Assembly (NCBI GenBank): GCA_003971905.1
Contig: RSEE01000025.1
Location: 744,001 to 772,466 of the forward strand
Reading direction: 5' to 3'
DNA from: Moniliella sp. 'wahieum'
Lineage: Eukaryota
Length of the DNA: 28,466 nucleotides
Shown: piece after piece, positions 1,510 to 28,466 of the stretch
Layout of the letters: each line of letters starts with the position of its first letter
Numbering within the stretch: position 1 is the stretch's first letter
Notes under the pieces: model-generated
What the model was told of the DNA's origin: nothing
The model's input: only the letters and a program-made list of their open reading frames with translations
Databases searched by the model: none
Program-made: the position numbers and the translations under genes

Positions 1510-3714
1510 TTACGCCTTCTTGGCTGCCTCGGCTTGCTCCTCCGCAATCTCTTGAATCTCATCATCAATCGCAATCTCCTCATCCAGGTCCTCCACTTGC
1601 AGGTTGGGGCGATGAATAAAGTCGGTAATGAGCTTCTTGTACGGGTGGGGCACGCCTTGTGGGTTGTTCCTGCGCACAAACGGAAGTACTACTCGGCATA
1701 GACATTGCCGTCGGCACGGCCGAAGGGCGAGTTGATAATGTGGTCCGACAACACAAAGCTGTCGTCAACGGCACTGCAAATCCACGCACCGTCTTGCACA
1801 GCGCTGACACACTCGCCTGGACCGTATCCAACTGCGTGGGCGCCAGCCAGCCCGAACGCAAAAGTGCGCCGCCTTCTCCTCCATCTGCCACAGACCGTAC
1901 AGCTCGCCACCGTCGTCAACGTCGCCCGCACCCCATCCTTGTCCGCAGACGGCGGCAGTTGCTTGATGGCATTGTGGAACTGACGGAAAATGTAGTTCGA
2001 GGTGTGGACCGAGGCGGCAACAAAGGTAGCCTGCGAACACGCTTCCAATGACGCTTGCTTGTTCAGCCCCTTCTTTTGTGCGGCCACCACATCGTCCGCC
2101 GCCTTCTTGACCAGCATGGCCGAAGCAGCGTCAAAGCCCTTTTGGATTCCCTCGAGCGAGTCGAGATCGGCATCGCTGGCTTTCGAGCTCAAGTTCTTCT
2201 CCCGTACGTCCGAGCCGAGGTAGGTGAGTGCCTCCGACATGGGCTTGCCCTTGACCGCGTCCACATAGGCTTGCACCAAGAACCGACCCGATTGGAGCGC
2301 CAGAATCGTATTGTCGCCTTCCCACGTGCAGTGCACCGCAAAGTCAGAGAACATGTTGGCCAGACCATTGTACGCCGAGTACCCGTGTCCTCCGAGCGAT
2401 TGCCGCGACTTTTCAATCGCGTCGAGCGTGGCCCAGGTGCAGAACGCCTTGAGACCAGCCGAGGTTGAGTGCGTCTGCTTCAGCATGTCCACGTGCGTTC
2501 GAGGTTAGGGTCACCAGGCTCCAGCGCCTCCAGCGCCTTGCTCGTCTCGTCGTACATGGCCGTCATCTCGAGCGCAGTAAAGCCAAATGCGACCGCCTGC
2601 GCCAAGAGCGGCAGCAAACGCCGTTGGTGAATCGGGTAGTCAAGCAACTGCGTCTCCAACTTTTGCGATGGGTCCGACTTGAATTGCCGTCGCACCGCCG
2701 CATACCGCACCGAAATGGTAAGTGCCTTCTTGGCCGTGTTGGCACTGTCGGCGACCATGGCGGTACGACCACCGAGCAGAGCACCGTACGTCAGCTGCGC
2801 CAGTGGCGGCTCCCGCACCTCGCCTTCGCGAGTAACCTGGGTGTGCTTCATCAGCATGTAGGCACGTGGGATGCGCACATTGGTGAATTGAATGTAACCA
2901 TTGTCAATTCCGTCGCGGCCCATCTTTTTACCAATGTCACCAATGTTGATGCCGGGAAGCAGGTCAAACGTCTGCGTGTTGCGCAGCGGAACAATAAACG
3001 TCTTGACACCATAGTCCTTGCCATCCACAATCAGACGCGCAAACACAGAGCAGTGCGTCGCCGTTTGGGCCGCACCGCCAATCCACCACTTGGTCGCACC
3101 CAGGTGCGGGGTATGGATGACAAACTCATCGGTTTTGGGGTCAAACGTGGCGCGCGTCTCGAGACCGGCAACGTTCGAGCCGTGCTGCAGCTCAGTCATG
3201 CCAAAGCATCCAACCATGCCCTGGAGCGTAATGACACCCTTGTCAATCCAGTATAGAACTGGTTGGCAGTGGCGCCCGAGCGGATGGCACCCAGGAACAG
3301 GCCATAGTGCACGCCAAACCGGGTCCAGAAGCCAGGGTCAAAGCCCGATGAGCTCCATGCGCCTTTGGAAGTCCTCGACCGACTCGTTGGTAACGTAGTG
3401 CACAAGAGAAGTGATGCGCTTCATGGTCAACTCGCGCAGCTGCTCCTTGCTCAAGTCGTAGAAGTTGCCCATGTAGAAGAGGGGTTGCGCTCGAGCTCGA
3501 GCATTTGTTTTTCCTTGAGCAGGAGCGCTGCTTCGGTGCCATGCTGGGCAATGGCCAGCTGGAGCGCGAAGATGCGGATTGGTCAGCGGGCACGCGGGTT
3601 GGGGGGGGGGGGGGGGGGGAAGAAGGCACATACAGCGCGGACGTTGAACGGCGGGTTGGCACGCTCTTGCATCATGGTGGTGACGCTCTGCTTGTCGATC
3701 CACTTGGTCGTCAT
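1510..3714 (-). CDS. Acyl-CoA oxidase (peroxisomal beta-oxidation, POX family)
   Basis: [75 protein letters not shown] at 3714 (MTTKWIDK), intron 3559-3633, stop TAA at 1510-1512. Split over several ORFs by frameshifts. Confidence 0.93.
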
Positions 3715-6700: not shown

Positions 6701-7287
6701 TTGTATATTAGAACGTGGTATATACGCGAGAGCTGAACCGTGAGTCATACTTTTTACTCCATCAACGAAGAAAGGCTCTATAAAAGGATTCTCGCTCCCT
6801 GCCTTCAAGGTTCTGTCATTTTCCATCCTCGCTCGACCTCCTAAATCACAAGGCAGCTCGCGCCTCCAAGCTTCATCATGCCCAACACAGAGCCGGAGAC
6901 TGCAAAGGAGTGCGTCTTCTAGTGAGGCATCAGACTTATTGTGTGCGCGCCGAGTTGATCGCCGCTCTGGCTTGGATCCGGACTGAGGATCCGCTGTCGC
7001 TTCGGGTTCGGTAGACGGGCCGGTCGACTGTGGGCAACGCACCTTTCAGCGTTGTCCTCCGTCCAAAAGCATTTTTTCCACATCGCCATTTTGCGTGGGA
7101 GACCCAGGGGGCAATCCAGAGAGGGGCTGAAGGTGCAACTCAGGGGAACTAGCCACACGTCTGACATATTAATGTCAGATGTGAGCCACAGTAGAGATGG
7201 TGGCCAGCGCTCACCGGTTGGAACCAGCTGAGATCGTGCTTGCGCCGGAGCGCTGGCCAGACCAATGCGTCTAACCCGTCCCGTCCG

Positions 7288-7520
7288 CAACTCGCGCTTA
7301 CCTACTCAGCCTACTTCCCCTCAGACTTTAACTTTGTCCAGGGAGGTAAGCTGCCGGGGCTGTACTCCTCTGTCGGGGCATCAGGTAATGTGCCGATCAA
7401 TGCTTCTACCTCCTCCGGCTGTGAAGGTGGGTCGCTCGACGGGACCGGCACCTCCTGCTGGTCGGCTCGGGTGATGTGGCGCGCAGACGGCCAAGGCGAG
7501 ATCTAAGTCTACATCCCCCA
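7288..7520 (+). pseudogene. Polysaccharide lyase family 14 (PL14, alginate/glucuronan lyase-like) remnant
   Basis: LTYSAYFPSDFNFVQGGKLPGLY...CWSARVMWRADGQGEI*VYIP matches the PL14 pattern F.F..GGKLPG / S.R.MWR..G.GE.Y.Y. An in-frame TAA sits at 7504-7506 where Tyr is expected. No recognisable intact N- or C-terminal part. Confidence 0.75.
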
Positions 7521-8993
7521 GAAGTTGGGGGGAGGGTACAAGCTTTGAGGGTTTCTCCATACTTCTTCTCCGCCATCTTCAAGTAAACGTTCATCCTGCC
7601 TCAGTGGTGTGCGATCATATCCATACTTTTCTTGTGGGCAATCGTACCATCAATGTTAGGCGTAATGCTCAGCTCACTACAACGGTATGGTGTGTGATCA
7701 ATGTGAGTAGGTCGGTACATATATGGTTCATACCACGTCTGATGTACACCATCATGATTGCCAGCAGGAAATGACCCCTGTGGCGACCCTAACCGTGCAA
7801 GCGTCGCAGAAGCTCAGTCCTTTCAAAGACGGTACATCGGGCTATATAATAGGCTGGCTCCAAGTGCTGCGTGAAAGAGGTACAAGAGTCATGGGCATAT
7901 GCGGAATGCTTCCAATGCCGTTTTCCTAAATACCGATCTAGGAAATCAGAATGAAAGTGCTCCAACTATGCACGGGCAAGCGGTCCCCCAACGTACTGGC
8001 CGCTTGCCTCCACAAGTTGTAAGCGCAAAGGGGAAGACGAATCGACAACGAGAGGGAGGGGACGTGACTGATTTCATATCGGGAACGAGGCTGAGGAGGG
8101 CAGATAACGAAAGGAGGAAAGAACATATGCTCTTCAAGCATTGTCCATTGTTTCTGAGGGCTATATAAATGCTTTTCTGTGGCTAATATCGGGCGCAGCG
8201 GCAGGTGTTCCTCAAGGTCGGTGTGGCCGGGCAAACGATGATGTGTGACGGGTGCTATTCCCATGGCCGGCGGTGGAAGTTACGGTTAGGACAGGGACGG
8301 CATCCGCTTAGGATGTACTATGACCTAACGGTGCATGCCCTTTGAAGATATCAGGAGATGGAGATGGGGGAAAGGATAGAGATCATATTCATCGAGTGGC
8401 ATGGAGCGAGGTATATATACCTCGGAGAAGAGGAGGCCGAGTGAGCTGACTCACACGGAGAAAACAAAAGGGGCATAGAACCAAAAGGGGGACAGGATCT
8501 AGAACAAAACAGGGTCCAGTGAAACTGGTGACATCGGTGACCAGGTGAGCCTGGTCCCGACAGAAGATGAACAGGTGGTCGAATTTGGGGGCGCCGAATG
8601 TATGTTTTAGTTGGCGCGGAGGGGTCCGGCTGGTCACTTATCAATCAAGACTTACATCCACCTGTCAGTTCTAGGGAAAACAACGCACCGTTGTCTGCCT
8701 GAACCCCAGAGTCGAAGGCGGTCTTTGTTGGGACTACCAAAAGAATGTGTTGCCCCTCCATCCGCGCTTTGCGAAGTCTGTAGAAAGGAGCGCTCCACTC
8801 CCCCCCCACCATCTACATAGCAGCAGCAAAACCCTACTGAGCCACATGGAGGAGGATGCTGATTTCAACATTGCAATCACAAGCGGAACCAGCGCCGAAA
8901 TTTTGTGACCGGGCGGAATGCGCAGCGAGATGGCGCAACTGTCCTCAGGAAGAAGAGTTTGCTGGCCCCCACCACATCCAATTTTTGCCCATC

Positions 8994-9909
8994 ATGTCAG
9001 GTTTGCCAGCTAAGCCCACCGCGCCCATGGGCAACGTCCCTGCCGCCGAGCCCACCGAGCCTGCCGCTTCGGCCGACCCCAAGCCTTCCTCTGCGTCCAA
9101 CGACGAGGAGGCGGGGACAAGACGGTGTTTGATGACCAGGAAAATTTTACTCTCTCGCACCCGCTCGCTTCCACCTGGACCATGTACGCCGACCTGCCCA
9201 GCTCCAATCGCCGCGCCACCTCTTCTTCCTGGGGCCAAACGATGGAGAAGCTGGCCGACGTGGACACAGTCGAGGCGTTCACTGGGTACGTGCCAACCCC
9301 TTTTCCCAACTCTTCTTTTTCCACCCCCTCCCCTCCCCTTGGCGAGCACGAAAGCTAACCACGAACCCCTGCTGTCAAGTCTGTTCCACCATGTGCCTGC
9401 GCCGACGCAGCTTGGCCAAAAAATGACTTTTTACCTTTTCCGGGATGGAATTCAGCCGGCCTGGGAGGACAAGGGGAACGTTGGTGGTGGCTCGTGGAAC
9501 GTGCAGTTCCCAGGGACAAGTCGGCGGGCAAGATTGATGACATGTGGCGCAACACGATGCTTGCCGCGATTGGCGAGACGTTGGACATTCCTTTCCCCTC
9601 GGGCGCGCGTCCGATCCAGAACCTGGACAAGGCCCCCTCGGTCGTGGCCGGCGTCGCGTTGGCGGCGCGGCCGAACTTTTACCGTATTTCCATCTGGACC
9701 CCTCGCCTCCGGATGCGAACAAGAATGCGGAGGATGATGTGGCGCGCATCGGCCAGCGCACGTACGATGTCGGCTTGAACTTCAAGGTCCATGCTCTTGG
9801 CTTTACGCAGGAGGAAAGGTTGAGCACCGCCTACGGCTCCGAGGTCGAGTTCCAGTCCCATGAGGATGCAGGTCGGAACAAGGGCCGCAAGGGTAAGGTG
9901 GGCGTTTAG
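8994..9909 (+). CDS. Eukaryotic translation initiation factor 4E family protein (divergent)
   Basis: HPLASTW, FYLFRDGIQPAWED..N.GGGSW, DDMWRNTMLAAIGET, RPNFYRISIW, EFQSHED. Intron 9286-9379 (GTACGT...GCTAAC...AAG). Stop TAG ends at 9909. Frameshifted. Confidence 0.9.
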
Positions 9910-11923: not shown

Positions 11924-12006
11924 CATCGACCATCGACCATCGACCATCGACCATCGACCATCGACCATCGACCATCGACCATCGACCATCGACCATCGAC
12001 CATCGA
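11924..12006 (+). repeat. Perfect heptamer tandem array (CATCGAC)11 plus a partial unit
   Basis: Eleven exact CATCGAC units at 11924-12000, followed by CATCGA. Confidence 0.97.
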
Positions 12007-12891: not shown

Positions 12892-15082
12892 ATGCAGCCC
12901 AGCATTCCGCTCAAGCGTTTCGACACGGGCGAGTCGGATGAGTCGGCCATCGACACCGGCATGGGCGAGGGCATGGAGGAGGTCCACCCCGGCGGCATGC
13001 CCACCAAAGTGTTCAGCTGGCCGCCCGACACCAAGGTATCTGACGACGCCCCCTGGGCTCACATCGTCCCCGTGCGGACCAAGGACACCAGCGACGACCA
13101 TGCTGCCCAGGCGGAAATCGAGAGTGGCGACCGCTTTCCTCCCGAGGACCAGCAGGACGTCCTCGATGTCTTGGGCGGCGGACTTGTCTCCCATCTCAAT
13201 CTCTGGCGCGGGCAGAAGGCTTCCTTGGCGACTTGTCCGGAGTCCCTACTGCCCAACAGCAGGAGCTCTTTCATCTCCCTGCCGGCTTGCGCAAGGGGCT
13301 CAAGCAACGACAGTACGTTCTCTACCTCTCGCACTGCTGCCGCTGACTTCTCTCCCTCCACAGTGTACAGAGTGAGTCGTGATTTTTTGTTCTTCCGTAT
13401 TGTGCGAGATGGTGGTGGGGAAGGTTGGACCATCGATCGAAATGCTAACCAACGAGACGCTAGTGATCGCCCTCAGCTCTGTGATTGCTGGTGGGATTTT
13501 CCTCCAGACGGGACATACCCTGGCTGTTGCCGGCCCGCTCTCCCTCTTGATCGCGTATCTGTTACAGGCGGACTGATTGCGTGCGTGATACTGTGCGAAG
13601 CCGAGCTTGCCAGTTTAGCCCCTGTCTCGGGCTTTTACGTACGGCACCCGTCCATGTGGCTGGATGAGGCGTTGCGTTCGCCACGGGCTGGGCTATCGTC
13701 GTAGGCAACGCGCTGGCGCTCGCGCCGGCCGAACTAATCTCCTGTGCCCAGATGGCACTCTACTGGGGAATGTCTCCCCTGCCGTCCTAATCACCGTCAT
13801 GGCCACTCTGATTGTGGCATCCAACGTGTTTATGCTACGCATCATGGGGGAGGTGGAGGTGGTAGCAGCAGTGTTCAAACTGATTTTTATCATCATGCTT
13901 GTCATTCTCAGTCTCTGCCTCGACCTAGGTGCCGGGCCCAAGGGGGAACGGATCGGGTTCCGGTACTGGACCGCGCCCGATGGGCCCATGCGATCTTTTC
14001 TTCTCCCAGGGGCGAGCGGTAGGTTTTTCGGCGTTTGGCAAGCGGCCATCACCAGCGTTTACACCTTCACCACCATCGACGCTACGTTTGTTGCCGCTGC
14101 TGAGCTCGAGGCTCCACGACGCAACATCCCCAAAGCTGCCAAACGGTAGGTTTCTCTCCCTCTACGCACTCGCTTGTCTTGCGGTAGCAGATGACTGACA
14201 AGCAGGTAGTGTGTTTATTCGCGTTTTTGTCCTTTATAACCTGCTCATCATTTCCATGGGGCTCATCGTCTCCTCCCGTGACCCACGGCTGAACCGTACC
14301 GTAGGGACCCAACAGAGCGTCTTTGTCATTGCGGTCGAAACAGCTGGCATCAAAGCCATGCCCAGCATCATTAGTACGTCCTCTTGTCCCTTGCTCCGCC
14401 GTCCTTTCTCCATCCACAAGAAATTGACAAGTTGGATCACAGACGTTTGTGTCATCGCTTCATCCTGGAGCGCAGCCAACTCGTTTGTCCTTGCAGGTTC
14501 GCGTACCTTGGTAAGCCTTTCTGAGGAAGGATATGCCCCCAAGGCGTTTACCAAGATTCACAAGTTTGGCGTGCCCTGGGTCGCGGTTTTGACCATGTGC
14601 ATTTGCTTTTTTGGCCTTTCTTTTCTGGCCATGTCTTCGCGCGCCACTTCCATTTTCAACTGGTCCAGTGCGTGTGCCATGTGTACCTGTGGACATACTC
14701 GGTAATCTGCCTTACCTCGATCCGCGTACAACGCGGGATGAAGGTGCAGGGAATCAAACGTTCCTCCCTTCCCTGGAGTATGAGGGGGCAACCGTACATT
14801 GCCTACGTTGGACTGAGCGGCTGCCTCCTCCTCCTTCTCAGCAACGGAATCCAGATTATGGTCCCGGGTCACTTTTCCGTCCCGGCGCTCCTCTCTTCGT
14901 ACTTGGCTCCGTTGGTTCTGCTAGGCGTCACGGCCCTGTACAAATTCTGGTACCGTACCACCATTGTACCAGTGGAGGAGATGCCAATCCAACCCTGGAT
15001 CATCCAACATATCATGAACCCCGAACCTCCTGCCCCTCGTTTGAGAGGGTGGCGCCGCCTCCTCGTTTTCCTCTGGGCATGA
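12892..15082 (+). CDS. Amino-acid permease (APC superfamily, yeast amino acid transporter family)
   Basis: Spliced LRKGLKQRHVQMIALSSVIAGGIF, AGPLSLLIAY, MGEVE, IGFRYW, PRRNIPKAAKRVFIR, SWSAANSFVLAGSRTL, GVPWVAV, QPYIAY. Introns 13313-13363, 13372-13463, 14146-14209 and 14374-14442. Stop TGA ends at 15082. Start codon is tentative. Confidence 0.9.
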
Positions 15083-16907
15083 GTGCCTTCACCATTTTCT
15101 CCTCCTGTATCATAATATCTTGCCCGCATCAATTCTCTGGATCCAACTGTTATGTGGGGAGTGAGACTCTTGAGGTTCGTAGTCGCGCATAACCAGTCAC
15201 AAGGCGGCCGCACAGGGGGGACTCTAATCCGCCAAGCTGGACGATTGATGATCGGTTTCCCACCAACGATGGGATCAACGAGGATAAAAAAGTCAGGATC
15301 GTGTTGCCAACGGAACGAGGCCGACCAAAGACAACAGGGAGGAAGAAAGGAAAAGAGACACCGAAGCAATATAAACTTGATGCGTTCGTTTTTGTAATGG
15401 CCCATTGAACAAGGGGTCAACTCTATACTTGCTTCCATACCGTCGACAGCACAGGCGGATTGTAGGGAGATTGAAGCAACAGAGGATACCGTGGATGCAA
15501 TAGAACAGATAATCCACCGGCAGTGGGGATATAGGGGTCAAATACATCTCATCCACCAACCCATGTTGTGGGTGGTGGCAGAGTGGGTGGATATGACGAC
15601 GGGCAAAGCGTTAGCACATAAAAAGGGTGTGGGGGGGGGTCACGGCATGAAGAAAACAGGCGTAACGATGAGAAACACACAGAAGCGGAGGAAAAATGAT
15701 TGCTTGCGCAAGCAGGGTGGAGGTGGCCGGGGAGGGACGGGGAAATGAACAACCCAATGTGTGCTGGCTCCCTGCGGGTTGGCCTCCGCGTTTGGTACAC
15801 GTCGAATTCTGTTTCGGGGCTTCGATGTAGCAGGGCTCTCAGCAAGGTAAAACCGGCGGAGCATGAAAATGGCTTCAGTTCCAGGTCGCCCCCCGACCCA
15901 CGGCAGATGGATAGGTCGGACGAAGGATGCATACCGAGCGCTGTTTGTGGGCTTCTACCGCTGATGCTCGTGCCGGGACGCTGCCTCAACTAGGGCAAGA
16001 GTGTAACGGGGTCGTCCGGCACTTGCAGGATGATACTGTTGATGCCGAACTGCGCGCTTCCCGCCGCCATACTAGGACACGCATTGGATCCCGAATTGGC
16101 CTAGGGCAGCCCTACGCATGGGACACGCACAGAATAGGACCGCGCATGTCATGCATCATGGTCAGTCGCATGGGGAAAGAGGGCGAAAGGGAGAGGGGGG
16201 CATCGCGCGGCGGGTAGAGCAGACATCTGATTCCCGGTATCTCTGCGAACTCAGCATGAATGGCGTGCATGACTCAGCACGGTGCTCTTGCAACCAAAGA
16301 CACACCCCAGCCGATTCTGCGCCGTGTTCGGCTGCATCTGGTACAAGGGCCAAGGCGAGACGCATCGCCCGCTAGCCAATCACCCTGCAACGGCTGCCCG
16401 GCGGCGTCGACGTGATTGGCTACCCGTTAGCGCCACATGGTGTGCGTGCATGACCTCGACTGTCGCAGCGTCGACGACGGGCAGAGACGGAAGGATGACA
16501 TGGATGACAGCAAACAAGAAGACCGCGGGCCGACACGTGGCGGCGATGGCGGTGGCGGGGCGCAGTCCGGGTGACAGGAACCGATTTGCGGGGAACGGAC
16601 TCGATCTCCTGGCGCCCTACGGCCTAGAGCTGCCCCACAGGCCTGGTCCCGGAGCGGCGTCCCTGTGTGGGGTAAACGTTTAAAGGGGAGGTTCTGCCGG
16701 CGAATACACGCCGCAGCACGATGATGGGTGGCACCCAACCAGTGTCGGCGCAATTCAACCCTAGTGGACATGCACCCTCTCACTGAGCCCGCTTCCCGCG
16801 GCCTGCACCCCCGCCGCGGGACGCGTGCCGGGCGTGTGGCGTTAGCATTGAATATTGAGCCAAGTCCCGAGGCAGCGCCCGCGTCCTGCTCCCACCCACC
16901 TGCCGTC

Positions 16908-18756
<1,849 letters not shown>

Positions 18757-20153
18757 GAAAGGCTTTAGTCCTTGTTCCAAAAGCTCCTCATCGCGATTTC
18801 CTCTCCTATTCTCCTGAGGTCCTACTAGGTTCTCCATGAATCGCCTGCGCCTCATGCTCAGTCTAGGCTCATAGGCTCAGGCTCGGATTGGGTGCTCTCG
18901 CGTCAAGCATATACGCAGCAATAAAAAAGAGAAAAAAAATACTGGTTGAAAGGGATTTGATCACGAGGACTCCAAGGAGCCGCGTTCTAGTGCTACGCAC
19001 TGGTCTGCCGTAGGACAGCTGAGAGATTACTACGCGATCTGTTGTTGTGGAAAACATGTTCCTTTCAGCCTCATAAACTTTGATGACCCACAAAGCCTAG
19101 TACTTCTGCTTTTTGTCTACCAGTCTCTCTGCCGGGTAAGGCCTAGCAGTAGTACCTCTGAGTACAGCCTAAGCAAGCGCCAGGCAGCTGTTCTGCGCCA
19201 CCGACTGACCCACCCTCGCTTCTTCTGCTCGCGTCCCCCATAGGGCTGCATGCATGCATTGCTGTACGAAAACCAATCGCTTTGGCAGCGCATCGCGTGC
19301 CGGCTTCTGCGGCTGCACTCATCTCCCTCAGTCTCTCTCGCTGCAAGACGCCGCCCACGCCTGCGGCTTGGACAGTGTGCCCAGCACATGGCAAACATTG
19401 GTCATTAACATTGCCAACGAACTCCTCCATGCCCCCTTTGAATGGAGCTTGTCCGGCACACCGCTTCGTCTGCCTTGTCCTCCTCCTCGTCTGCCACCCT
19501 CTCCTGCCCACTGGCGTATACGTACCGGTCTCCGGCACGGCCGCAGCGTGCGAGCAACCGCCGAGACACGGCACGGCCGCTGGCTGCGCCTGCGCCGCAC
19601 GCCGCGCCGAGCGGAGGAGCAATCGAGCGGGGCAGCGCAACACAGTGTGACAGTGACGCGTCGCGTGCGTATCACGCCCTGCGACAAGCGGCCCTCGGAC
19701 GGAGCGGCTTTAATAAGCTTTACTGATCGATTTATCAACAAGTAGGAGCTATTAGGCCCAGCGCACCCTCCCGGCCTGGTGGAACGCGGCATCAGCTGCC
19801 CGGCTGGTCCGCCAATCCTGCCGCCGACGCTTCCCCATGCTCCGCCCGCCGTCTCCCCCGTCGCTTCTGCCTGTCCCCCGCTACGCCCTCCCCTCCGCTG
19901 GCGTGGGACGTAGTCGTCATGCGGAGGTGGGTTTGGGCGGACGAGGAGGAGGCAGCGCGGGGCCGCCAACGGCCGCTCCGCCGGTTCCAGCTCGCCGAGC
20001 GCGTGGGGGAGCTCGTGCCGCACAGGGCTGCTGTTCCTGCGTCCAACAGAGGATGATCAATGTCCTGTGTTTCGGACGCACGAGACTGGACAGCAGTGGA
20101 CTTTTTCCCCCCTTGTCTTACGATCAGCGTACGATTTTCCGTTGGTTCCTATG

Positions 20154-20281: not shown

Positions 20282-22270
20282 ATGGGCTCCTTGATCGATA
20301 TCTCCCCGGCCTCCAAGGAGGGCTCGACGCACGATGCGCTCGCGGGCAGTAGTAATCAGGTTGACCTGGCTGTCGGAGAGGAATCGCCGGCCGGAACCGC
20401 TGGCCGTGTTCTCCCGCTGGGCTCAGACAAAGGACGCGGTGGCCCAGGTGGACCTGGAACAACAGGAAGACGAAAAGGATGATCTGGGGCCAAAGGCGCT
20501 GCCGACCGAGCCGTACTGCGCCTTCACTCAGGGAACCAAGCTCTTCATTGTCCTGACCGTCTCCATGGCCGGCTTCTTCTCGCCGTTTTCCATCAACATT
20601 TACATTCCGGCCCTGCCCCAAATCGCACAAAAGCTGCATATCTCTGGGAGTAAGTGGACCTGTGGCGAGACTTGGCCGTACTAGGACGTGCGCTTCTGAC
20701 CTTTGCTCCATGCCGCCTCTGCTCCTAGCCGACACCAATGTCACGGTGACCGTCTACATGATCGCCCAGGGTTAAGTCTTCTGGGCCCCGCTATCAGACG
20801 TACGTTCCCCCCTGTCTCCGAGTACTTCTGACCGTGTGGGCGTGTGGATCCGCACGCTGGTGTTCTGACGCGAACCTGTACCCTTATGAACGCGATTCGA
20901 TAATGGATGCTGCTTGGTTGTGTATACCTGCAGGTTTTGGCCGCCGACCCATTTACCTCATCACGTTCCTAATCTACTTTGCCGCCAACCTCGGTTTGTC
21001 CTTTACGAACGTCTACTGGCTTCTCGTCGTTCTGCGTATGGTCCAGGCGGCCGGCGCGTGCAGCGCGATTGCCATTGGAGCAGGGACGATTAGCGATGTT
21101 ACGGAGCGCAAAGAGCGGGGGGGTTACATGGGGTACTATGCCCTGGCGCAGTACACCGGTCCGGCCATTGGGCCCGTCATTGGCGGCGCCTTGGCCCAGC
21201 GGTGGGACTTCCACGCGACCTTCTTCTTCCTCACTGCGCTCTCGGGCCCTTTCTCATCTTTATGGCCCTGTTCCTCGTCGAGACACTGCGCGTGCTAGTG
21301 GGCAACGGAAGCGCTCGCACCGGGGGATCTACGCCCCCTCCTCGAGCCCAGCTGCTCGCCTCCTCCTCCTCCACCTCCTCGGCCCCCGCCCGCGCATGAA
21401 GAGCCCCCCCAGCGCCCGTCGAGCAGCCCCTGGAGTTCGGCTTCCAACGGCCCTTTTGGTCTTTGCCCGACCGGAAACTAGTCGGCCATCGCGGCCTTTC
21501 GATGATGGTCTATGCGACCTACTACCTATCCTCGGGCTCGCTGCCCTACCTCTTCAAAGAGGTGTACGGCCTGGACGAGCTGATGATTGGCGTGTGCTTC
21601 GTCCCGAGCGGCGTGGGGTGTGCCCTGGTACCGTCGTTGCGGGAAAATTGCTCGATTGGGATTACCGCCGCGCCCTGCGCAGCCGCGCGTACAGCTCACC
21701 CGTGCCCGCTTGCGCTCGGCCTGGGTCTACTTGCCTTGCTATTCCGTCTCGCTCTTGGCATACGGCTGGTGCGTGCGTGCACATACGAGCATTGCCGCTC
21801 CGATCGTCTTTCAGTTACACGTACGTCCTGCTTTGCCCGCATGCAATGTATGCAGCACCGTTCTACGTATACTAATGCGGAAACGCTAACGAGAATGATG
21901 ATGATGATTCTGCCTTTCTCTTTCTTCTGTGCCGCCCACCCTGCCCATCTCACATGGTATATGGGCGATGACCTCCCTGGACACGGACATGGTATTCTAG
22001 TGGGCTGTTCTCCACCATGTACTTTACCAACATCAACACGCTCATCGTCGACCTGTACCCCGGTAAGGCCGCCAGTGCCACGGCGGCCGTTAATGTAGGC
22101 CGGTGCCTGCTGGGCGCTGTGGCTGTGGCGGTGGTCCAGCCGATGATCCAGGCCATGGGCGCAGGATGGACGTTCACCCTCGGCGCACTCCTCACGCTCG
22201 TTGTGGGGCTCGTGTGCCAGGGCCTATTTATCTCTATGGCGAGGCCTGGGCCGCACGCGCGTCGGCCTAG
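20282..22270 (+). CDS. itp1: MFS transporter, orthologue-like to Ustilago itaconate transporter Itp1
   Basis: [161 protein letters not shown]. These closely match U. maydis Itp1 as I recall it, and the gene lies next to tad1. Introns about 20650-20728, 20800-20933 and 21821-22000. Ends [13 protein letters not shown] at 22270. Confidence 0.85.
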
Positions 22271-23808
22271 GCATCCTCCTCGTCCTCCTCCTTCTTTTCC
22301 TTGTCTTCGTCTCTCCTGCGGAGAATCACGCATCCGCTTCGCCGGATCTATCTATTGTCTACTCTCTCGGCTTCCGATGGTTACACTTGCGTGCGCTCTC
22401 TGGTTTTATACAGTGCCCCATTTTTATCCTGCTGCGTCCCGTTGCTTGCCCAATGCATCATGCCCAATGCATCCTCCTGCGCCAGTGGATGTGGAGCGGG
22501 AGGCCGCAGACCGTAGTTGGACGAGGCGTAGTAGTACAGGCTCCCCTCGGGCGCACATCGCACGCCTCGGATCGCGTCGCGTTGCAACCTGCCGCGCCCC
22601 TTCTCGTTGGGCATAAGCGCGCTCCCGGCTCCCTTTAACCACCGCTAAACCCAATTTCTCGATCCGTTGCAACTGTGAAGGCGGTGGCCTAGATTCAATA
22701 GTCACGATCTGGGGATGGCGGCTCTCTGAAAATGGTTGGAACTGGCCCCATGTTCATCCTGAATCAGATTGTTCGCCTTGGCCAGTGTACGTTTTCTCGT
22801 CCCTATTCACGCGTTATACTGATGCTCATGGAAAAAACACCAATAAGGTAAGTACGGTGGGCACTCATCGTAATGGCTACTTTCGCGCTTTGCTGCAACT
22901 GAGAGAAGAGAACGGGGCGGAAGAACGCAGGTTCGTAACTCGGATCAACAAAGCGAACGGCGAGCAAGCGCGTTGGCGCTGCGAGGCTCAATGTACGATG
23001 CACGGTGCACGACGGTTGGACCGATAGCGAGGATGGCGTGGAGCAAGCGACCCCCAACATATGGCGTGAGCAGGATCATGCACGACGCCGGTCCTCGGCG
23101 GCCGCGCTCGGAGGTAGCGGCGTTGCTTCCACACCATCATGAGAGAGCGGGAGGCCGATCGCTTCTTGGGGTGAGAGACCGACGCACGCAGCCTCGTGTG
23201 CATGTGCACCGCGCAGGATGCGCAAGAGCCGTCGCGTGCGCAATGGGGGCCAGCGATGAGCCGCGTTGACATGTGACATGACATGTGATGTATGCGGCAA
23301 GTGACACTGAAAATTGAATAGTGACTAGAGCGACGCACAGACCACCAGGTACGACCCGCCAAGTCCGCGAGCACGCTGCACATGCGGTCTGGGTACGCAG
23401 GCACCGTCCTGGCCCACGACGGACGAGGCGGCCTTGCCGTTCGCTCGGCCGTGCGCGCTGGGCAGCCGGCAGGACGTGCGACATGTCACAGCAGATGCGG
23501 ATGCCCCCACCGTGCCATCCGAGCGCCGCGCTTGTCCGCCGGGCGACCATTCACGATTCCATTCATCATCTGAACGACGATCCATCCGCCGTCTGCGACG
23601 TGCGCTCCGCACAGGCTGTCCGCCTGCGCCGTGCGCAGTCCCCCCAGTGTACCGCCGGCTCCCCGCCCGATTTGGGACACCGAGCTGAGACGCTGGACGG
23701 GGTCTGTGCGGGACAAGCGTATAATGTAAGCTGTCCTCCTCGGCGCCCACTGCCTCCTCCCCCTGCTCTCGCTCTCACCAGCACCGCCTCGGACGCACTC
23801 CAAGCCCC

Positions 23809-25354
23809 ATGGCACCGCTGCCTGCCGCCCCACCTTCCCCCACCGCCGCTGCCGCGGCCTCGGTCCCCCTGCCGCTCACCGGCCACCCGGACCTCTCCGA
23901 CACGGGCGGCACTTTCAGCGACATCTTTGGCACGCCGGCTATGCGGGCCATCTGGTCGGACCAGAATCGCGTCGCATGCTACCTGGCCATCGAGGCGGCC
24001 TTGGCGCGCGTCCAGGCCGACCTGGGCATCATCCCCCGCCGCGCCGCCGAGGAGATTGCCCGCCACTGCCGTGTGGAAGAGGTGGATTGGGCACTGTACA
24101 ACGCCAAACGGAGCGGATTGGCTACCCCGTCCTGGGCATCGTCCAGCAGCTCGTCGCGCACTGCCAGGATGGCTTGGGCGAGTACTGCCATTGGGGCGCA
24201 ACGACACAGGGTACGTTTTCGTCTACGCTCGCTTCAGCCTGCGGCCGGCGCGCGCCGCCGCAGGGACATGCAGAAAGAGAAAGAGAAGGGTGACTGACAC
24301 AGTAAGAGGGGACTTTGTTGGACAGACATTACGGATACAGCGACCGTGCTGCAGCTTCGCCAGTCCTTTGGGTTCATCAAGGCCAAGTTGGCCAGCATGG
24401 CAGCGAGCTTGACGCGCCTGGCGCAGACCTACCATGACGTGCCCATGGCCGCGCGGTCCAACCTGCAGCAAGCGGTGCCCATCACCTTTGGGTTCAAGAT
24501 GGCCCGCTTCCTCGCCACTCTGCAGCGGCACCAGGCCCGCCTCGCCGAGCTCGAGGCGCGCCTGTACACACTCGAGTTTGGTGGCGCGGCAGCAACCTTT
24601 CCTCGCTCGCGCGCACACGGCCTCGCGACGCACGAGGCGCTGGCCACGGCCCTGGATTTGGCTCCGGCAGAGATCGCATGGCACACGGAGCACGACCGGT
24701 TCGCCGAGGCCGCCACGTTCCTCGGCTTGCTCACGGGCACGTTGGCCAGTTGGCCACGGACATCAAATTGATGTCCCAGACCGAGGTGGGGGAGGTGAGC
24801 GAGCCCTTCCTCCCCCACCGCGGGTCGTCGTCCACCATGCCCCAAAAGAACAACCCCATCTCCTGCGTCTATATCCACGCTTGTGCCGCGCACGTCCGGC
24901 AGGGCGTAGCGGCCTGCCTGGACGCCATGCAGTCAGACCACGAGCGCGGAACAGGGCCCTGGGAAATTCTCTGGTCCAACTGCCCCTGATGATGAACTTC
25001 ACCTCGGCCGCCCTGGCCAACGCCGATTTTGTCCTTGCTGGCTTACAGGTCTTCCCCCAGGCCATGCAGCGCAACTTGGGGCTGACCAAGGGCCTGATCG
25101 TCTCCGAGGCGGTGATGATGGGCCTCGCGCCGACGCTCGGAAGGCAGTATGCCCACGACGCCGTGTACGCCTGTTGTCGTACGGCCCTGCTTCAGGACCG
25201 GGCACTGGTCGACGTGCTGTGGGAGAATCAAGAGATTGCGAGTAAGCTCGATCGCAGCGAGCTGGAACGGCTGTGCGATCCGGCGAATTCCCTCGGCCAG
25301 TGCGACCAGTGGATCGATCGCGTCTTGGCCCGCGCGCCGGCCGCTCCGGCCTAG
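23809..25354 (+). CDS. tad1: Trans-aconitate decarboxylase Tad1 (fumarase/aspartase superfamily, 3-carboxymuconate cycloisomerase-like)
   Basis: LTGHPDLSDTGGTFSDIFGTPAMRAIWSDQNRVACYL, IGYPVLGIVQQLV, GLGEYCHWGATTQ/DITDTAT, PMAARSNLQQAVPITFGFKMARFLAT, EIAWHTEHDRFAE, signature GSSSTMPQKNNPISCVYIHACAA, DAMQSDHERGTGPWEI, LGQCDQWIDRVL. These closely follow U. maydis Tad1 as recalled. Intron 24211-24325; stop TAG ends at 25354. Confidence 0.9.
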
Positions 25355-26205
25355 GTGCCTGCCCCACTCGTCGACTCTGGTCCGGGGAGGACCTGCTTGG
25401 GGGGGGCGGCGTGCCTTCTTGTGATCCTCCCGGGCGCACCCACGCCCCATCACGATCGACTCCCGAGTGTGTTGCTGTATAAAGTACTCTGGCGTGGTGT
25501 GCGTCGAGGACAAAGCCGGCACCACGCACGCCCTTGTCTCCTTGCACACCTCGTACGCAGCGCGGCACACCCGCCGGCACCACCCACGGCTCCCACCCTA
25601 CGAACCTAGAATCCATCCACCTTTTCCTCTACCCACGTGTACGCGACTCGACGAAATCTACCGACCCGATCTGCGTGTCGAGTACGATGGTGCACCCGGC
25701 CTGGCACGAGCAAGAGGGCGCACGGACACCGTAGGTCACAGACCGCAACGTCCCAGGAGAGTATCGGTGAAATACGCAAAGATTAGGAAGGGTCAGAAAG
25801 ACGTGTACATGTATTCCATTCACAAGTAGAGCCGTTTTGCCTCAAGCCTCTGCAACCTCGTGGCGGGGGGAGAGGGGTGGGGGTGGGGGGGGGGGTTGCG
25901 CAGCTCGGCCCTTGTCCGTCGTAGCGTACGCGTACACACGTCCACATCGATGCGCACACCTTCAAGGCGCCCCCCGCACCGCGCCGTCCTGGACGAAAGC
26001 GATCTCCCTCTTCCTTCCTTCCGACTCGGGACTCCTGTCCAACACACACGCATTCTCAATCCGCCAAATGAGCGGAACGGCTCATCTTGCCGGGGGGAAC
26101 GGGAGAACGAAACAAGACCAACCGATCCAACGTCCGCCCCTGCGCCCTGCGCGCCGCACCACGTACATCTCCAACCGCCCTTGCCCCCGCCTCAGGCCTC
26201 AGGCC

Positions 26206-27205
26206 TCACTGCGCATCCTTATACGACGAAGCTGTACACAAAACCACGTACCAAAGTCAATGCTCCTTTCCTTCTGCTGCGGCCGTGCCGGCTCGGGCTG
26301 GATCCAAGGATCGCGCTCGACTCACCGAGATCAAGTTGCCATCGGGATCGCGCACGTAGACACTGAGGATCGGCCCGACGGCGCCCGTGCGCCGCACGGG
26401 GCCTTCGACCACGTCAATCTTTTGCTCCGCGAGGTGTTGCTGTTGGCGTTCGTACATACGTAGTGGGAGCGGGAGGGGGGTCGGTGGGTGAGCATTCACG
26501 CCGTAGGAGCGGGGAAACGAGGGGTGGAGAGGACCGACAGAGGAGTAGGAACGGGGGTGCGTACCTGCGCAGCGGCGATGCTGTCCGAGATGATAAAGCA
26601 CAAATCCTGGGATCCTGGTTGGGGCAGGGCGGCTTCTGGGGGTGCGTGAGGAGGGTGAGTGTGTGTGGCGTGGCGTTGGGCGCTCACGCACAGGGGGGGG
26701 GGACGTACTTGGTTCGCTGAGGAGCAAAGGGGGGATGAGGGAGAGAGGAGATGGAAAGAGAGCACAGAACGTGAGAAGGAAGCAAGGCCAAACGGACAAG
26801 GCCATCATCCAGTCGGGTCAATTCGTCTGTGTGCTACTACTCTGCACTGCTCGACCCTGCTCTTGGCGCGCACCGCGCTCCGCTCCGAGCACAACAGGAA
26901 GGGGTACATACAACTCGTTGCCCTTCTGGTGCAAATTGATCTTCTGCTTGCCAAACGCCAGCGCCTTGCGGCCCGGACCAAAATGGACCAGCTCCATCCC
27001 GAGGCGGGTGTAGAACGCAACGGTGCGATCAACGTCGTGGCACGTAATGACCAAATGGTCCAGGGACGCAATGGTGAATCCACGCTGCGCCGCGGCGGCG
27101 CTGGAGGGGAGCGCCGGAGCGCACGGAGGTGGTGGTGCAGGAGGGTGGATGGGGGGACGCGGGCGGCGCGGGCGGCGCTGGCGCGCACGAGCGCGGGGGC
27201 ATCAT
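26206..27205 (-). CDS. rdo1: VOC/glyoxalase-bleomycin-resistance family protein (GLOD5/STM3117-like), probable rdo1 counterpart of the itaconate cluster
   Basis: Spliced product IASLDHLVITCHDVDRTVAFYTRLGM...[37 protein letters not shown]...VVEGPVRRTGAVGPILSVYVRDPDGNLI. Exons about 27205-26912, 26716-26709, 26635-26565, 26439-26326 and 26231-26206. The family call is from motifs; the rdo1 name is inferred from position next to tad1. Confidence 0.8.
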
Positions 27206-27771
27206 GCACATGATGGTGGTGGTGGGTGCTGGACGCGGGCGCGGGATGGCCGATGTCGATGACGCTGGACCGTCGACGGTTGGGAAGCGGCAAGGCGCAG
27301 AGGGCGCTCAGGCAAAGACGTCATCGGCCGGCCCGGCGCCGATGTGCCGGGCGAGTGACTGGACGTTAGTTGGTGCGGTGTGCAGAGGCGACGAGCGATG
27401 GCTCTGCTATGCGCGGGAGCGCAGCTGCTGGCAAGCCAAGTCACCAAGTCACTAGTCAGCAATCGACGTTCGACGCAGCACTCCGACGCTGCGCCCCGCT
27501 CCTCCGTGCGCCGCCATCTCCGCCGCCGCCGCCCATCGGCGCAGCGGACGTTTTCTCTCCAAGCCGCGTGCGCCGCGTGTTCCCGCCTCCCCGGCTCCCC
27601 TTGACGCCACGATTGTGCCAGGATTGTTCCGCACGTGCTCCGGACCCATGAGCGAGGCCGTATCCCCAACCGCTATCGCCCTGTGGACGGCCCGCTGGGC
27701 CCGCCCGACTTCAGGCACCTCAAATTCCGCGCCAACCATGCGCGAGTGGGCACGATGGAACGAGGGCTGCG

Positions 27772-28028
27772 GTGCGAGTACAGCACCATGACCGGTCTCG
27801 AAAGCGCTGCTGATCGGGATCAACTATGTCGGCACCTGCGCCGACCCCACATGGTACTCGAACGACGTGGTCAACGGTCGGCACTTTCTGCTCCGTGCGG
27901 GCTTTGGCGCAGATAACACGGTCCTTACGGACCAAACCGCCGATCCGCGCGTCCGCCCCACCCTAGAGGCGAGCGACCGACAGTGGCGAGGCAATGAATC
28001 AACGATTGCATTGGTGGGCGCTTATTGA
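27772..28028 (+). pseudogene. Metacaspase (peptidase C14, Mca1-like) truncated remnant
   Basis: EYSTMTG, then after a frameshift (frame starting 27801) KALLIGINYVG...NDVVN..HFL...GF...N.VLTD...DPR.RPT. This is the start of the metacaspase catalytic domain. Similarity then ends and a stop is reached at 28026-28028 without the FHYSGHG or DSCHSG catalytic motifs. Not in the ORF track. Confidence 0.7.
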
Positions 28029-28466
28029 TAGTGGAGGCAGGGGGGAGCCCTGCTCGCGCTCGCTGGTAGCCGACTTGCCCTCCGGTCCACCCAGCTCGCT
28101 CGCAGCTCCGTTACCTTCTTCCTCGCCCAGCGCAAACTCCTCGTCAGTTCCACCAGGCAAGGGGGCCAAGGCTACCTGCGAGAAGCAGCCCTGCGCGCTG
28201 CCATCCGCGCCGATCGCCGCACCCCGGTCCCATCGACACCCCACGACCAAGACCACACCTGTCGCTCGCGCCGCTGGCGTCTTGACCGCCACAAAACGCC
28301 TCCCCCATCGACTGTAAACAGACCACGCTTCCTTGCAGATGAACCACGCGCGCTTGCCCGGGGCGCACCAGAAGCTGCAGCTGCCATTGCCGTTTTCGAT
28401 TCGCTCCGACCCGTTCGCCACGACGTCCTCTGCGCTGCATTCGACCTGCTCAGGGGGTACCCCTTT
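27999..28466 (-). CDS. Possible 3' end of an unidentified gene entering from beyond the window
   Basis: Open frame from the window edge (KGVPPEQVECSAEDVVANG...GTDEEFALGEEEG) with plausible coding composition. No family recognised. Confidence 0.25.
   Translation of the reverse strand, partial: KGVPPEQVECSAEDVVANGSERIENGNGSCSFWCAPGKRAWFICKEAWSVYSRWGRRFVAVKTPAARATGVVLVVGCRWDRGAAIGADGSAQGCFSQVALAPLPGGTDEEFALGEEEGNGAASELGGPEGKSATSEREQGSPLPPLSISAHQCNR

Follow-up and report, generated by a model that had tools for sequence, protein, structure and literature searches.

An itp1-tad1-rdo1 block, probably of the Ustilaginaceae itaconate cluster, beside an Hsp70 gene in a smut-type basidiomycete

Three adjacent genes in a stretch of contig RSEE01000025.1 (28,466 bases, G+C 59.2%; hereafter the window) resemble part of the cluster by which Ustilago maydis produces itaconate. 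Pfam profiles were run on stop-to-stop open reading frames (ORFs), comprising 121 pieces of at least 110 amino acids and a further 69 and 131 shorter pieces (321 in all). Gene models were drawn with our own script, which aligns proteins with DNA through states for frameshifts and for GT..AG introns and takes database homologues as guides. An MFS transporter lies at 20282-22270 on the forward strand (MFS_1 at 20762-21295), followed by a class-II lyase at 23809-25354, also forward (Lyase_1 and ADSL_C at 24298-25351), and by a VOC protein on the reverse strand at 27205-26257 (Glyoxalase at 26821-27201). The 1.5-kb spacer between the first two (22271-23808) gave no Pfam match in ORFs of at least 40 amino acids; its length gives the impression, unmeasured, of being unusual for a compact fungal genome. 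We propose that these genes are, very probably, the itp1, tad1 and rdo1 counterparts of the Ustilaginaceae cluster for itaconate and 2-hydroxyparaconate, as judged from sequence comparison. A first-pass annotation of the letters alone had set a transporter, a lyase carrying GSSSTMPQKNNP and a VOC protein next to each other at the same positions. It had also read the lyase and the transporter as following Tad1 and Itp1, noted the rdo1-tad1-itp1 adjacency and pointed to a micro-exon, and on these points our results agree with it.

The lyase aligned collinearly with U. maydis Tad1 in spliced alignment, with 363 of 451 aligned residues identical (80.5%). Whole-model identity was 76.1% to P. hubeiensis Tad1 and 79.9% to the database protein P0003, while four bacterial or other fungal homologues reached 56-60%. 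In a collection of 5.8 billion proteins the top matches were the P. hubeiensis protein (73%), P0002 (71%), whose residues 24-516 are identical to the Tad1 in the PDB, and P0003 (70%), with many CMLE-labelled proteins next at about 60%. Against the PDB, a 140-residue piece (24328-24747) scored 202 bits with U. maydis Tad1 (9h4h and related entries), compared with 105 for 3c8t and 96 for the Pseudomonas CMLE 1re5. A maximum-likelihood tree of 55 rows, made up of eight chosen sequences, alternate remaining full-length matches and the window model, was computed with IQ-TREE in quick mode under LG+G4. The window lyase fell in a four-row clade with three Tad1-type rows (support 100 in the Shimodaira-Hasegawa-like approximate likelihood ratio test, SH-aLRT; stem 0.43), and not with proteins resembling 3-carboxymuconate cycloisomerase (CMLE). 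The motif GSSSTMPQKNNP (24822-24857, forward) corresponds to the SS loop of Tad1, the G319-N328 region with Ser320 and Ser321, and the equivalents of G319, S320, S321, N328, R360, T362, W365 and W369 are all conserved. Among these, Ser320, Ser321, Arg360, Thr362, Trp365 and Trp369 are important according to mutagenesis of Tad1 (PMC11880804). A metagenome scan with U. maydis Tad1 returned only two loci at 46% identity, which were uninformative and were left unused. Taken together, the comparisons identify the lyase as an orthologue of Tad1 and not a generic PcaB.

In our model, tad1 consists of two forward exons (23809-24210 and 24326-25354, with the stop codon TAG at 25352-25354) encoding about 477 residues. 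The intron between them (24211-24325; 115 nucleotides, GTACGT..CAG, phase 1) falls between TTQ and DITDTATV. The Lyase_1 and ADSL_C architecture was recovered on the pieces 24298-24768, 24438-24986 and 24413-25351, and spliced alignment placed five frame breaks, near 24106-24109, 24592, 24612, 24748 and 24975. Those at 24592 and 24612 form a pair, one base being lost and another gained within 20 nucleotides; together they turn the conserved GNLSSLG into ATFPRSR and leave the downstream frame as it was; the pair could be either two assembly errors or a genuine compensated frameshift.

The transporter is likewise collinear with U. maydis Itp1 (UMAG_11777), with 369 of 450 residues identical (82.0%) over residues 34-488. 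For a 107-residue piece the identities are 93% with P0121, 90% with the 'Itaconate transport protein' UMAG_11777, 90% with the protein of Sporisorium graminicola and 79% with that of P. hubeiensis SY62; beyond this clade, identity falls to 65% and 53% in other fungi. In the corresponding tree the window protein sits in an eight-row Itp1 clade (SH-aLRT 100, stem 0.83), and it is by these comparisons an Itp1 orthologue, an MFS protein of DHA1 type. The model has four forward exons as sequenced (20282-20649, 20729-20799, 20934-21820 and 22001-22270, ending in TAG at 22268-22270). The start at 20282 is putative, the N-terminus being unconserved and broken in frame near 20428. Intron 1 (20650-20728) has 79 nucleotides, GTAAGT..TAG and phase 1, and intron 3 (21821-22000) has 180 nucleotides and GTACGT..TAG. 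For intron 2 (20800-20933, GTACGT..CAG) the script picked a donor at 20804 for reasons of phase; we prefer 20800 and assume that one base has dropped out of the T run at 20935-20938.

The VOC gene was resolved by spliced alignment into four exons on the reverse strand (27205-26912, 26716-26709, 26635-26565 and 26439-26257, with TGA at 26259-26257) and three introns (26911-26717, 26708-26636 and 26564-26440). Exon 1 contains at least one frame break, and probably two. The second exon is an 8-nucleotide micro-exon, CGAACCAA, flanked by ..CAG and GTACGT.., which contributes the last base of Phe, Glu-Pro and the first base of Lys to the conserved EFEPKA, through the predicted joint ...GAGTT/CGAACCAA/AAGCC.... 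It was recovered by the script independently with three different guide proteins, and by our own arithmetic estimate a string so flanked would arise by chance in the 267-nucleotide interval with a probability of about 1e-4, so that the micro-exon is well supported in silico. A fourth intron, beginning with GTGAGT at 26321, was considered and set aside, given that the phases do not fit and that the read-through 'VS' matches the E[LV]S of the family; it may still be real.

Spliced alignment with three GLOD5-type proteins gave about 63% identity for the VOC protein. The closest PDB entries to a piece of exon 1 (26911-27099, reverse) were 3ey7, STM3117 (3hnq/3huh) and human GLOD5 (3zw5), the last two at E values of 5e-11 to 2e-10. 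Compared with STM3117 and GLOD5, which are thus among its closest solved relatives, the fungal gene has three to four introns and an N-terminal extension. We take STM3117 to be the Salmonella macrophage colonisation factor, and presumably it neighbours bacterial genes for itaconate degradation; if that placement is right, a fungus and a bacterium would both have this VOC subtype alongside itaconate metabolism. In Geiser et al. (2015, PMC4720413; Table 1), Rdo1 is 180 amino acids long, and the nearest known homologue listed for it is the macrophage colonisation factor. The VOC fold of STM3117/GLOD5 type, the length and the place beside tad1 are consistent with Rdo1, and the window protein fits as its equivalent by family and position. 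The extension ahead of the VOC domain (27078-27205, reverse, in the window; also in P0229, P0267, P0268 and P0269) comprises 30-115 residues, many of them Arg, Ala, Ser or Leu, and resembles a mitochondrial presequence; to read through it in the window gene takes two frame corrections.

No protein named Rdo1 appeared among the database matches of the 63-residue exon 1 piece, even when 1.84 billion representatives were searched exhaustively. That search ranked six short, fungal-looking proteins with 58-74% identity (P0229, P0267, P0268, P0269, P0271 and P0272) among its seven best matches. All but one of these six end exactly at ...QKG[KQ]EL, P0271 running 12 residues further, and this end corresponds to the boundary between exon 1 and intron 1 of the window gene, read one codon into the intron. 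The fragments therefore look like fungal gene calls shortened at the same intron, with the micro-exon missed across the family; automatic gene callers apparently pass over so small an exon.

We take the U. maydis cluster to have the order cyp3-rdo1-tad1-itp1-adi1-mtt1-ria1. Its genes are listed in that order in Table 1 of PMC4720413 and in the Figure 6 legend of PMC8951962, and the cluster (Geiser et al. 2015, PMC4720413; GenBank KT852988 as cited in PMC6064134) shares the rdo1-tad1-itp1 adjacency with the window, besides the Tad1 catalytic residues and the VOC subtype of Rdo1. The two differ at the itp1 edge. In the window an Hsp70 gene (16953-18738, forward) lies 1.5 kb upstream of itp1, in the place that adi1 holds in U. 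maydis, and the published gene order is thus broken there. According to PMC6064134, cluster synteny is conserved, and an itp1 gene at the cluster edge beside a housekeeping gene occurs in none of the variants described in the text of PMC6064134 and PMC8951962. The genes tad1, adi1, mtt1, itp1 and ria1 form the core of the cluster, with rdo1 and cyp3 outside it (Geiser et al. 2018, PMC6064134). The block had been described in the first-pass annotation as the core of an itaconate cluster; this goes too far, since the window holds only two of the five core genes, tad1 and itp1. Incomplete clusters do have precedents: P. tsukubaensis is without rdo1 and cyp3, P. hubeiensis without mtt1, and M. mackinlayi without mtt1 and ria1 (PMC6064134, PMC8951962), and some species have itp1 alone or parts of the cluster (PMC8951962). 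Gene loss or relocation has thus taken place within the family, and itaconate is still made where mtt1 or ria1 is not clustered (PMC6064134, PMC8951962).

The first-pass estimate of one to four introns per gene comes close to our models, which have one in tad1, three in itp1 and three, possibly four, in rdo1. The further claim of an intron-rich genome is not borne out by the relatives. When eight proteins of the Itp1 clade were aligned, five predictions started or diverged just before FGRRPIY (HGRRPIY in one), directly after intron 2, and five ended or diverged immediately after VFQF, at intron 3. The calls that break at one or other of these introns are P0121, P0123, P0125, P0126, P0127 and P0129. 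In the NCBI gene call for Itp1 of P. hubeiensis SY62 the first two exons are missing. For tad1, the partial relative P0003 begins eight residues after the intron site. At least four of the seven introns in the window genes thus seem to occur in relatives too, namely itp1 introns 2 and 3, rdo1 intron 1 and probably that of tad1. We read them as belonging to the cluster genes of these relatives and not as the mark of an intron-rich outsider. A difference from U. maydis lies in tad1, which has an intron in the window, whereas the U. maydis-type P0002 is a single uninterrupted ORF of 516 amino acids. In the text of Geiser et al. (2015, PMC4720413), primers for intron removal are given for adi1 only. 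Together with the open frame of P0002, this suggests, without proving it, that tad1 of U. maydis is intronless.

Every gene in the window is split into pieces that lie in different frames. Besides the introns, itp1, tad1 and rdo1 contain about 18 or more frame breaks of one or two bases, together with one in-frame TAA, and their ORFs are consequently not intact as sequenced. Most of the breaks are one-base losses beside short homopolymers (AAA, GG, TTT, CCC). As controls for assembly indels we used the Hsp70 gene and an acyl-CoA oxidase gene (ACOX; 1583-3337, reverse), the break counts in these being minimum estimates. Five ORFs that abut one another and alternate in frame cover positions 1-123, 124-186, 186-369, 368-422 and 414-593 of the HSP70 profile, leave no space for introns and require at least four frame switches; the ACOX gene, with long ORFs uninterrupted by introns, requires at least two. 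Because single-base indels strike these two genes as well, an unpolished assembly is indicated, and we infer that the frame breaks are indel errors of a long-read assembly in that state. Such breaks can pass for introns in genomes of this kind.

The assignment to the itaconate cluster has to be weighed against other readings, and some of the observations given here and in the next paragraph weigh against it. The lyase might be an ordinary 3-carboxy-cis,cis-muconate cycloisomerase of PcaB type, serving aromatic catabolism among unrelated neighbours, a reading to which we give almost no credence. It has the same superfamily and Pfam domains to recommend it, and CMLE-labelled bacterial proteins of up to 60% identity. 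Bacterial CMLE/PcaB (PDB 1re5, 1q5n) and the 'fumarate lyase' 3c8t share the fold, the SS loop and the Arg/Trp catalytic region. Moreover, most of the Tad1 residues backed by mutagenesis also occur in CMLE-like proteins; R360, T362, W365 and W369 are present in P0004, for example, and these Arg, Thr and Trp residues do not discriminate. However, the solved CMLEs score far lower than Tad1, CMLE-like proteins with their 56-60% identity stand in a separate clade from the fully supported Tad1 clade that holds the window protein, and the gene is flanked by the Itp1 orthologue and the putative Rdo1 orthologue. The SS loop of CMLE-like proteins has an Arg (KRNP), found in 94 of 97 other sequences, where the window has the Tad1-type Asn328. 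Between the two Trp residues, at position 368, all 97 have Glu, Tad1 has Ile and the window Leu. This is one of 12 positions that split three Tad1-type sequences from the 97 others, at which the window is Tad1-type in eight cases, has a third residue in two (position 368 among them) and, on the unfavourable side, carries the non-Tad1 residue in two. Also unfavourable is the tree, in which the window protein is sister to a group of the remaining Tad1 rows, U. maydis, P. hubeiensis and P0003 (SH-aLRT 95). That position would suit the first-pass view that a core itaconate cluster is present in a lineage rich in introns and lying outside the Ustilago group, by which Tad1 chemistry would extend to a new fungal branch. 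The seven or eight introns in three genes would suit it too, as would the window G+C of 59% compared with 'around 54%' for most Ustilaginaceae (PMC8951962). None of the pieces searched exceeds 93% identity to any protein in the databases used, and the host species is therefore not among their annotated genomes. We nevertheless consider such a lineage unlikely. Window Tad1, at 80.5%, is no further from U. maydis than is P. hubeiensis Tad1 (77.9%), and with Itp1 at 82% lies inside the range of identities reported within the Ustilaginaceae (56-89% in PMC6064134, 68-89% in PMC8951962). The introns of itp1, rdo1 and probably tad1 named above are apparently common to relatives, neither the Hsp70 domain nor the long ORFs of ACOX contain any, and many of the interruptions are indels.

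A decaying remnant would be another way to read the same locus: the cluster would have been broken up, and itp1, perhaps with tad1 and rdo1, would be recent pseudogenes with real breaks and a real stop. This, too, strikes us as improbable, although itp1 gives it some substance. Its count of about 12 frame breaks stands above the roughly five that the pooled rate predicts (Poisson P about 0.006), in a comparison that is biased by the minimum counts for Hsp70 and ACOX. Exon 2 of itp1 (20729-20799, 71 nucleotides as sequenced) includes the in-frame TAA (20773-20775) and falls two codons short of its counterparts in U. maydis and S. graminicola, so that more than one simple homopolymer error is needed to explain the stop and the 6-nucleotide shortfall. 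On the other hand, itp1 is richer in homopolymer runs (55 per kb compared with 32-37), most breaks amount to the loss of a single base at a short homopolymer, and Hsp70 and ACOX, both expected to be functional, carry breaks of the same kind. Between the breaks, identity stays at 80-82%, catalytic and transmembrane motifs are intact, and there is no further stop. The flank where adi1, mtt1 and ria1 would be expected is without them, and species with itp1 only or a partial cluster are known (PMC8951962). Across the 28.5 kb, none of the 321 ORF pieces matched PrpF (adi1), Mito_carr (mtt1), HLH (ria1) or p450 (cyp3), in a search that covered 20 kb on the itp1 side and 1.26 kb beyond the start of rdo1, so that genes further to the right are possible. 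With adi1 outside the window, no source of trans-aconitate for Tad1 is visible within it. The flank at 27206-28466 was considered as the start of cyp3 or adi1 and gave no Pfam match in ORFs of at least 40 amino acids. Regulation offers no help either. In all species that PMC6064134 covers, the Ria1 motif reportedly lies upstream of each gene of the cluster; using the motif from that paper we found a single putative site, CNYNNNNRTCACGY (19664-19677, forward), about 600 nucleotides upstream of itp1, where 2.5 matches are expected in the window by chance, so that it is not significant. The window scan found no match upstream of tad1 or rdo1, where indel errors could hide sites, and the core RTCACGY occurs 13 times against 16 expected. 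Counts below chance expectation thus lend no support to control by Ria1. Finally, the orthology of rdo1 to the U. maydis gene (UMAG_12299) rests on family type and position. We nonetheless favour an itp1-tad1-rdo1 block of the Ustilaginaceae type, and infer that the genome has adi1, mtt1, ria1 and cyp3 in some other place.

The remainder of the window holds genes of other kinds. Pfam identified a Cys/Met PLP enzyme (3-1182, forward), eIF4E (8841-9775, forward) and an amino-acid permease (13376-15079, forward), and no tRNA was found in a tRNA scan of the window. A polysaccharide lyase family 14 domain (PL14; 7195-7503, forward; E 9e-19) lies in a region otherwise without annotation. On the strand opposite Hsp70, NAD-GH (PF10712) gave Pfam matches at 16845-18876 (reverse); we take this family to have been built from antisense frames of Hsp70, and we therefore regard the matches as spurious. 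There are also a perfect CATCGAC tandem repeat of 11.9 copies (11924-12006) and a run of 19 G at 3601-3619.

By homology, Tad1 would decarboxylate trans-aconitate to itaconate without a cofactor, using the SS-loop serines and the equivalent of Arg360, and Itp1 would export itaconate and its derivatives. Rdo1 would act downstream, in the proposed conversion of 2-hydroxyparaconate to itatartarate, a role not established even in U. maydis. Tad1 activity in this organism is thus predicted from the conservation of the enzyme. The host is a smut-type basidiomycete (window G+C 59%), and the pathway and its spread within the family are already in print (PMC4720413, PMC6064134, PMC8951962, PMC13208730). 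The locus adds no new lineage to the pathway and changes nothing in the known chemistry; what is new is confined to the altered cluster edge and the micro-exon predicted in silico.

One further reading is that tad1, itp1 and rdo1 form a free-standing module, either split from adi1, mtt1 and ria1 or never joined to them. We think this doubtful. If it were true, Tad1 would use trans-aconitate from outside, such as the large pools in grass hosts, and not the product of Adi1. The module would then serve detoxification or conversion and be regulated differently, which would fit the lack of Ria1 motifs upstream of tad1 and rdo1. On the favoured reading of an Ustilaginaceae-type block, the locus shows a cluster arrangement with itp1 at the edge beside a housekeeping gene, and to the pool drawn on for engineering itaconate strains it adds a further natural pair of Tad1 and Itp1, both about 80% identical to their U. 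maydis counterparts.

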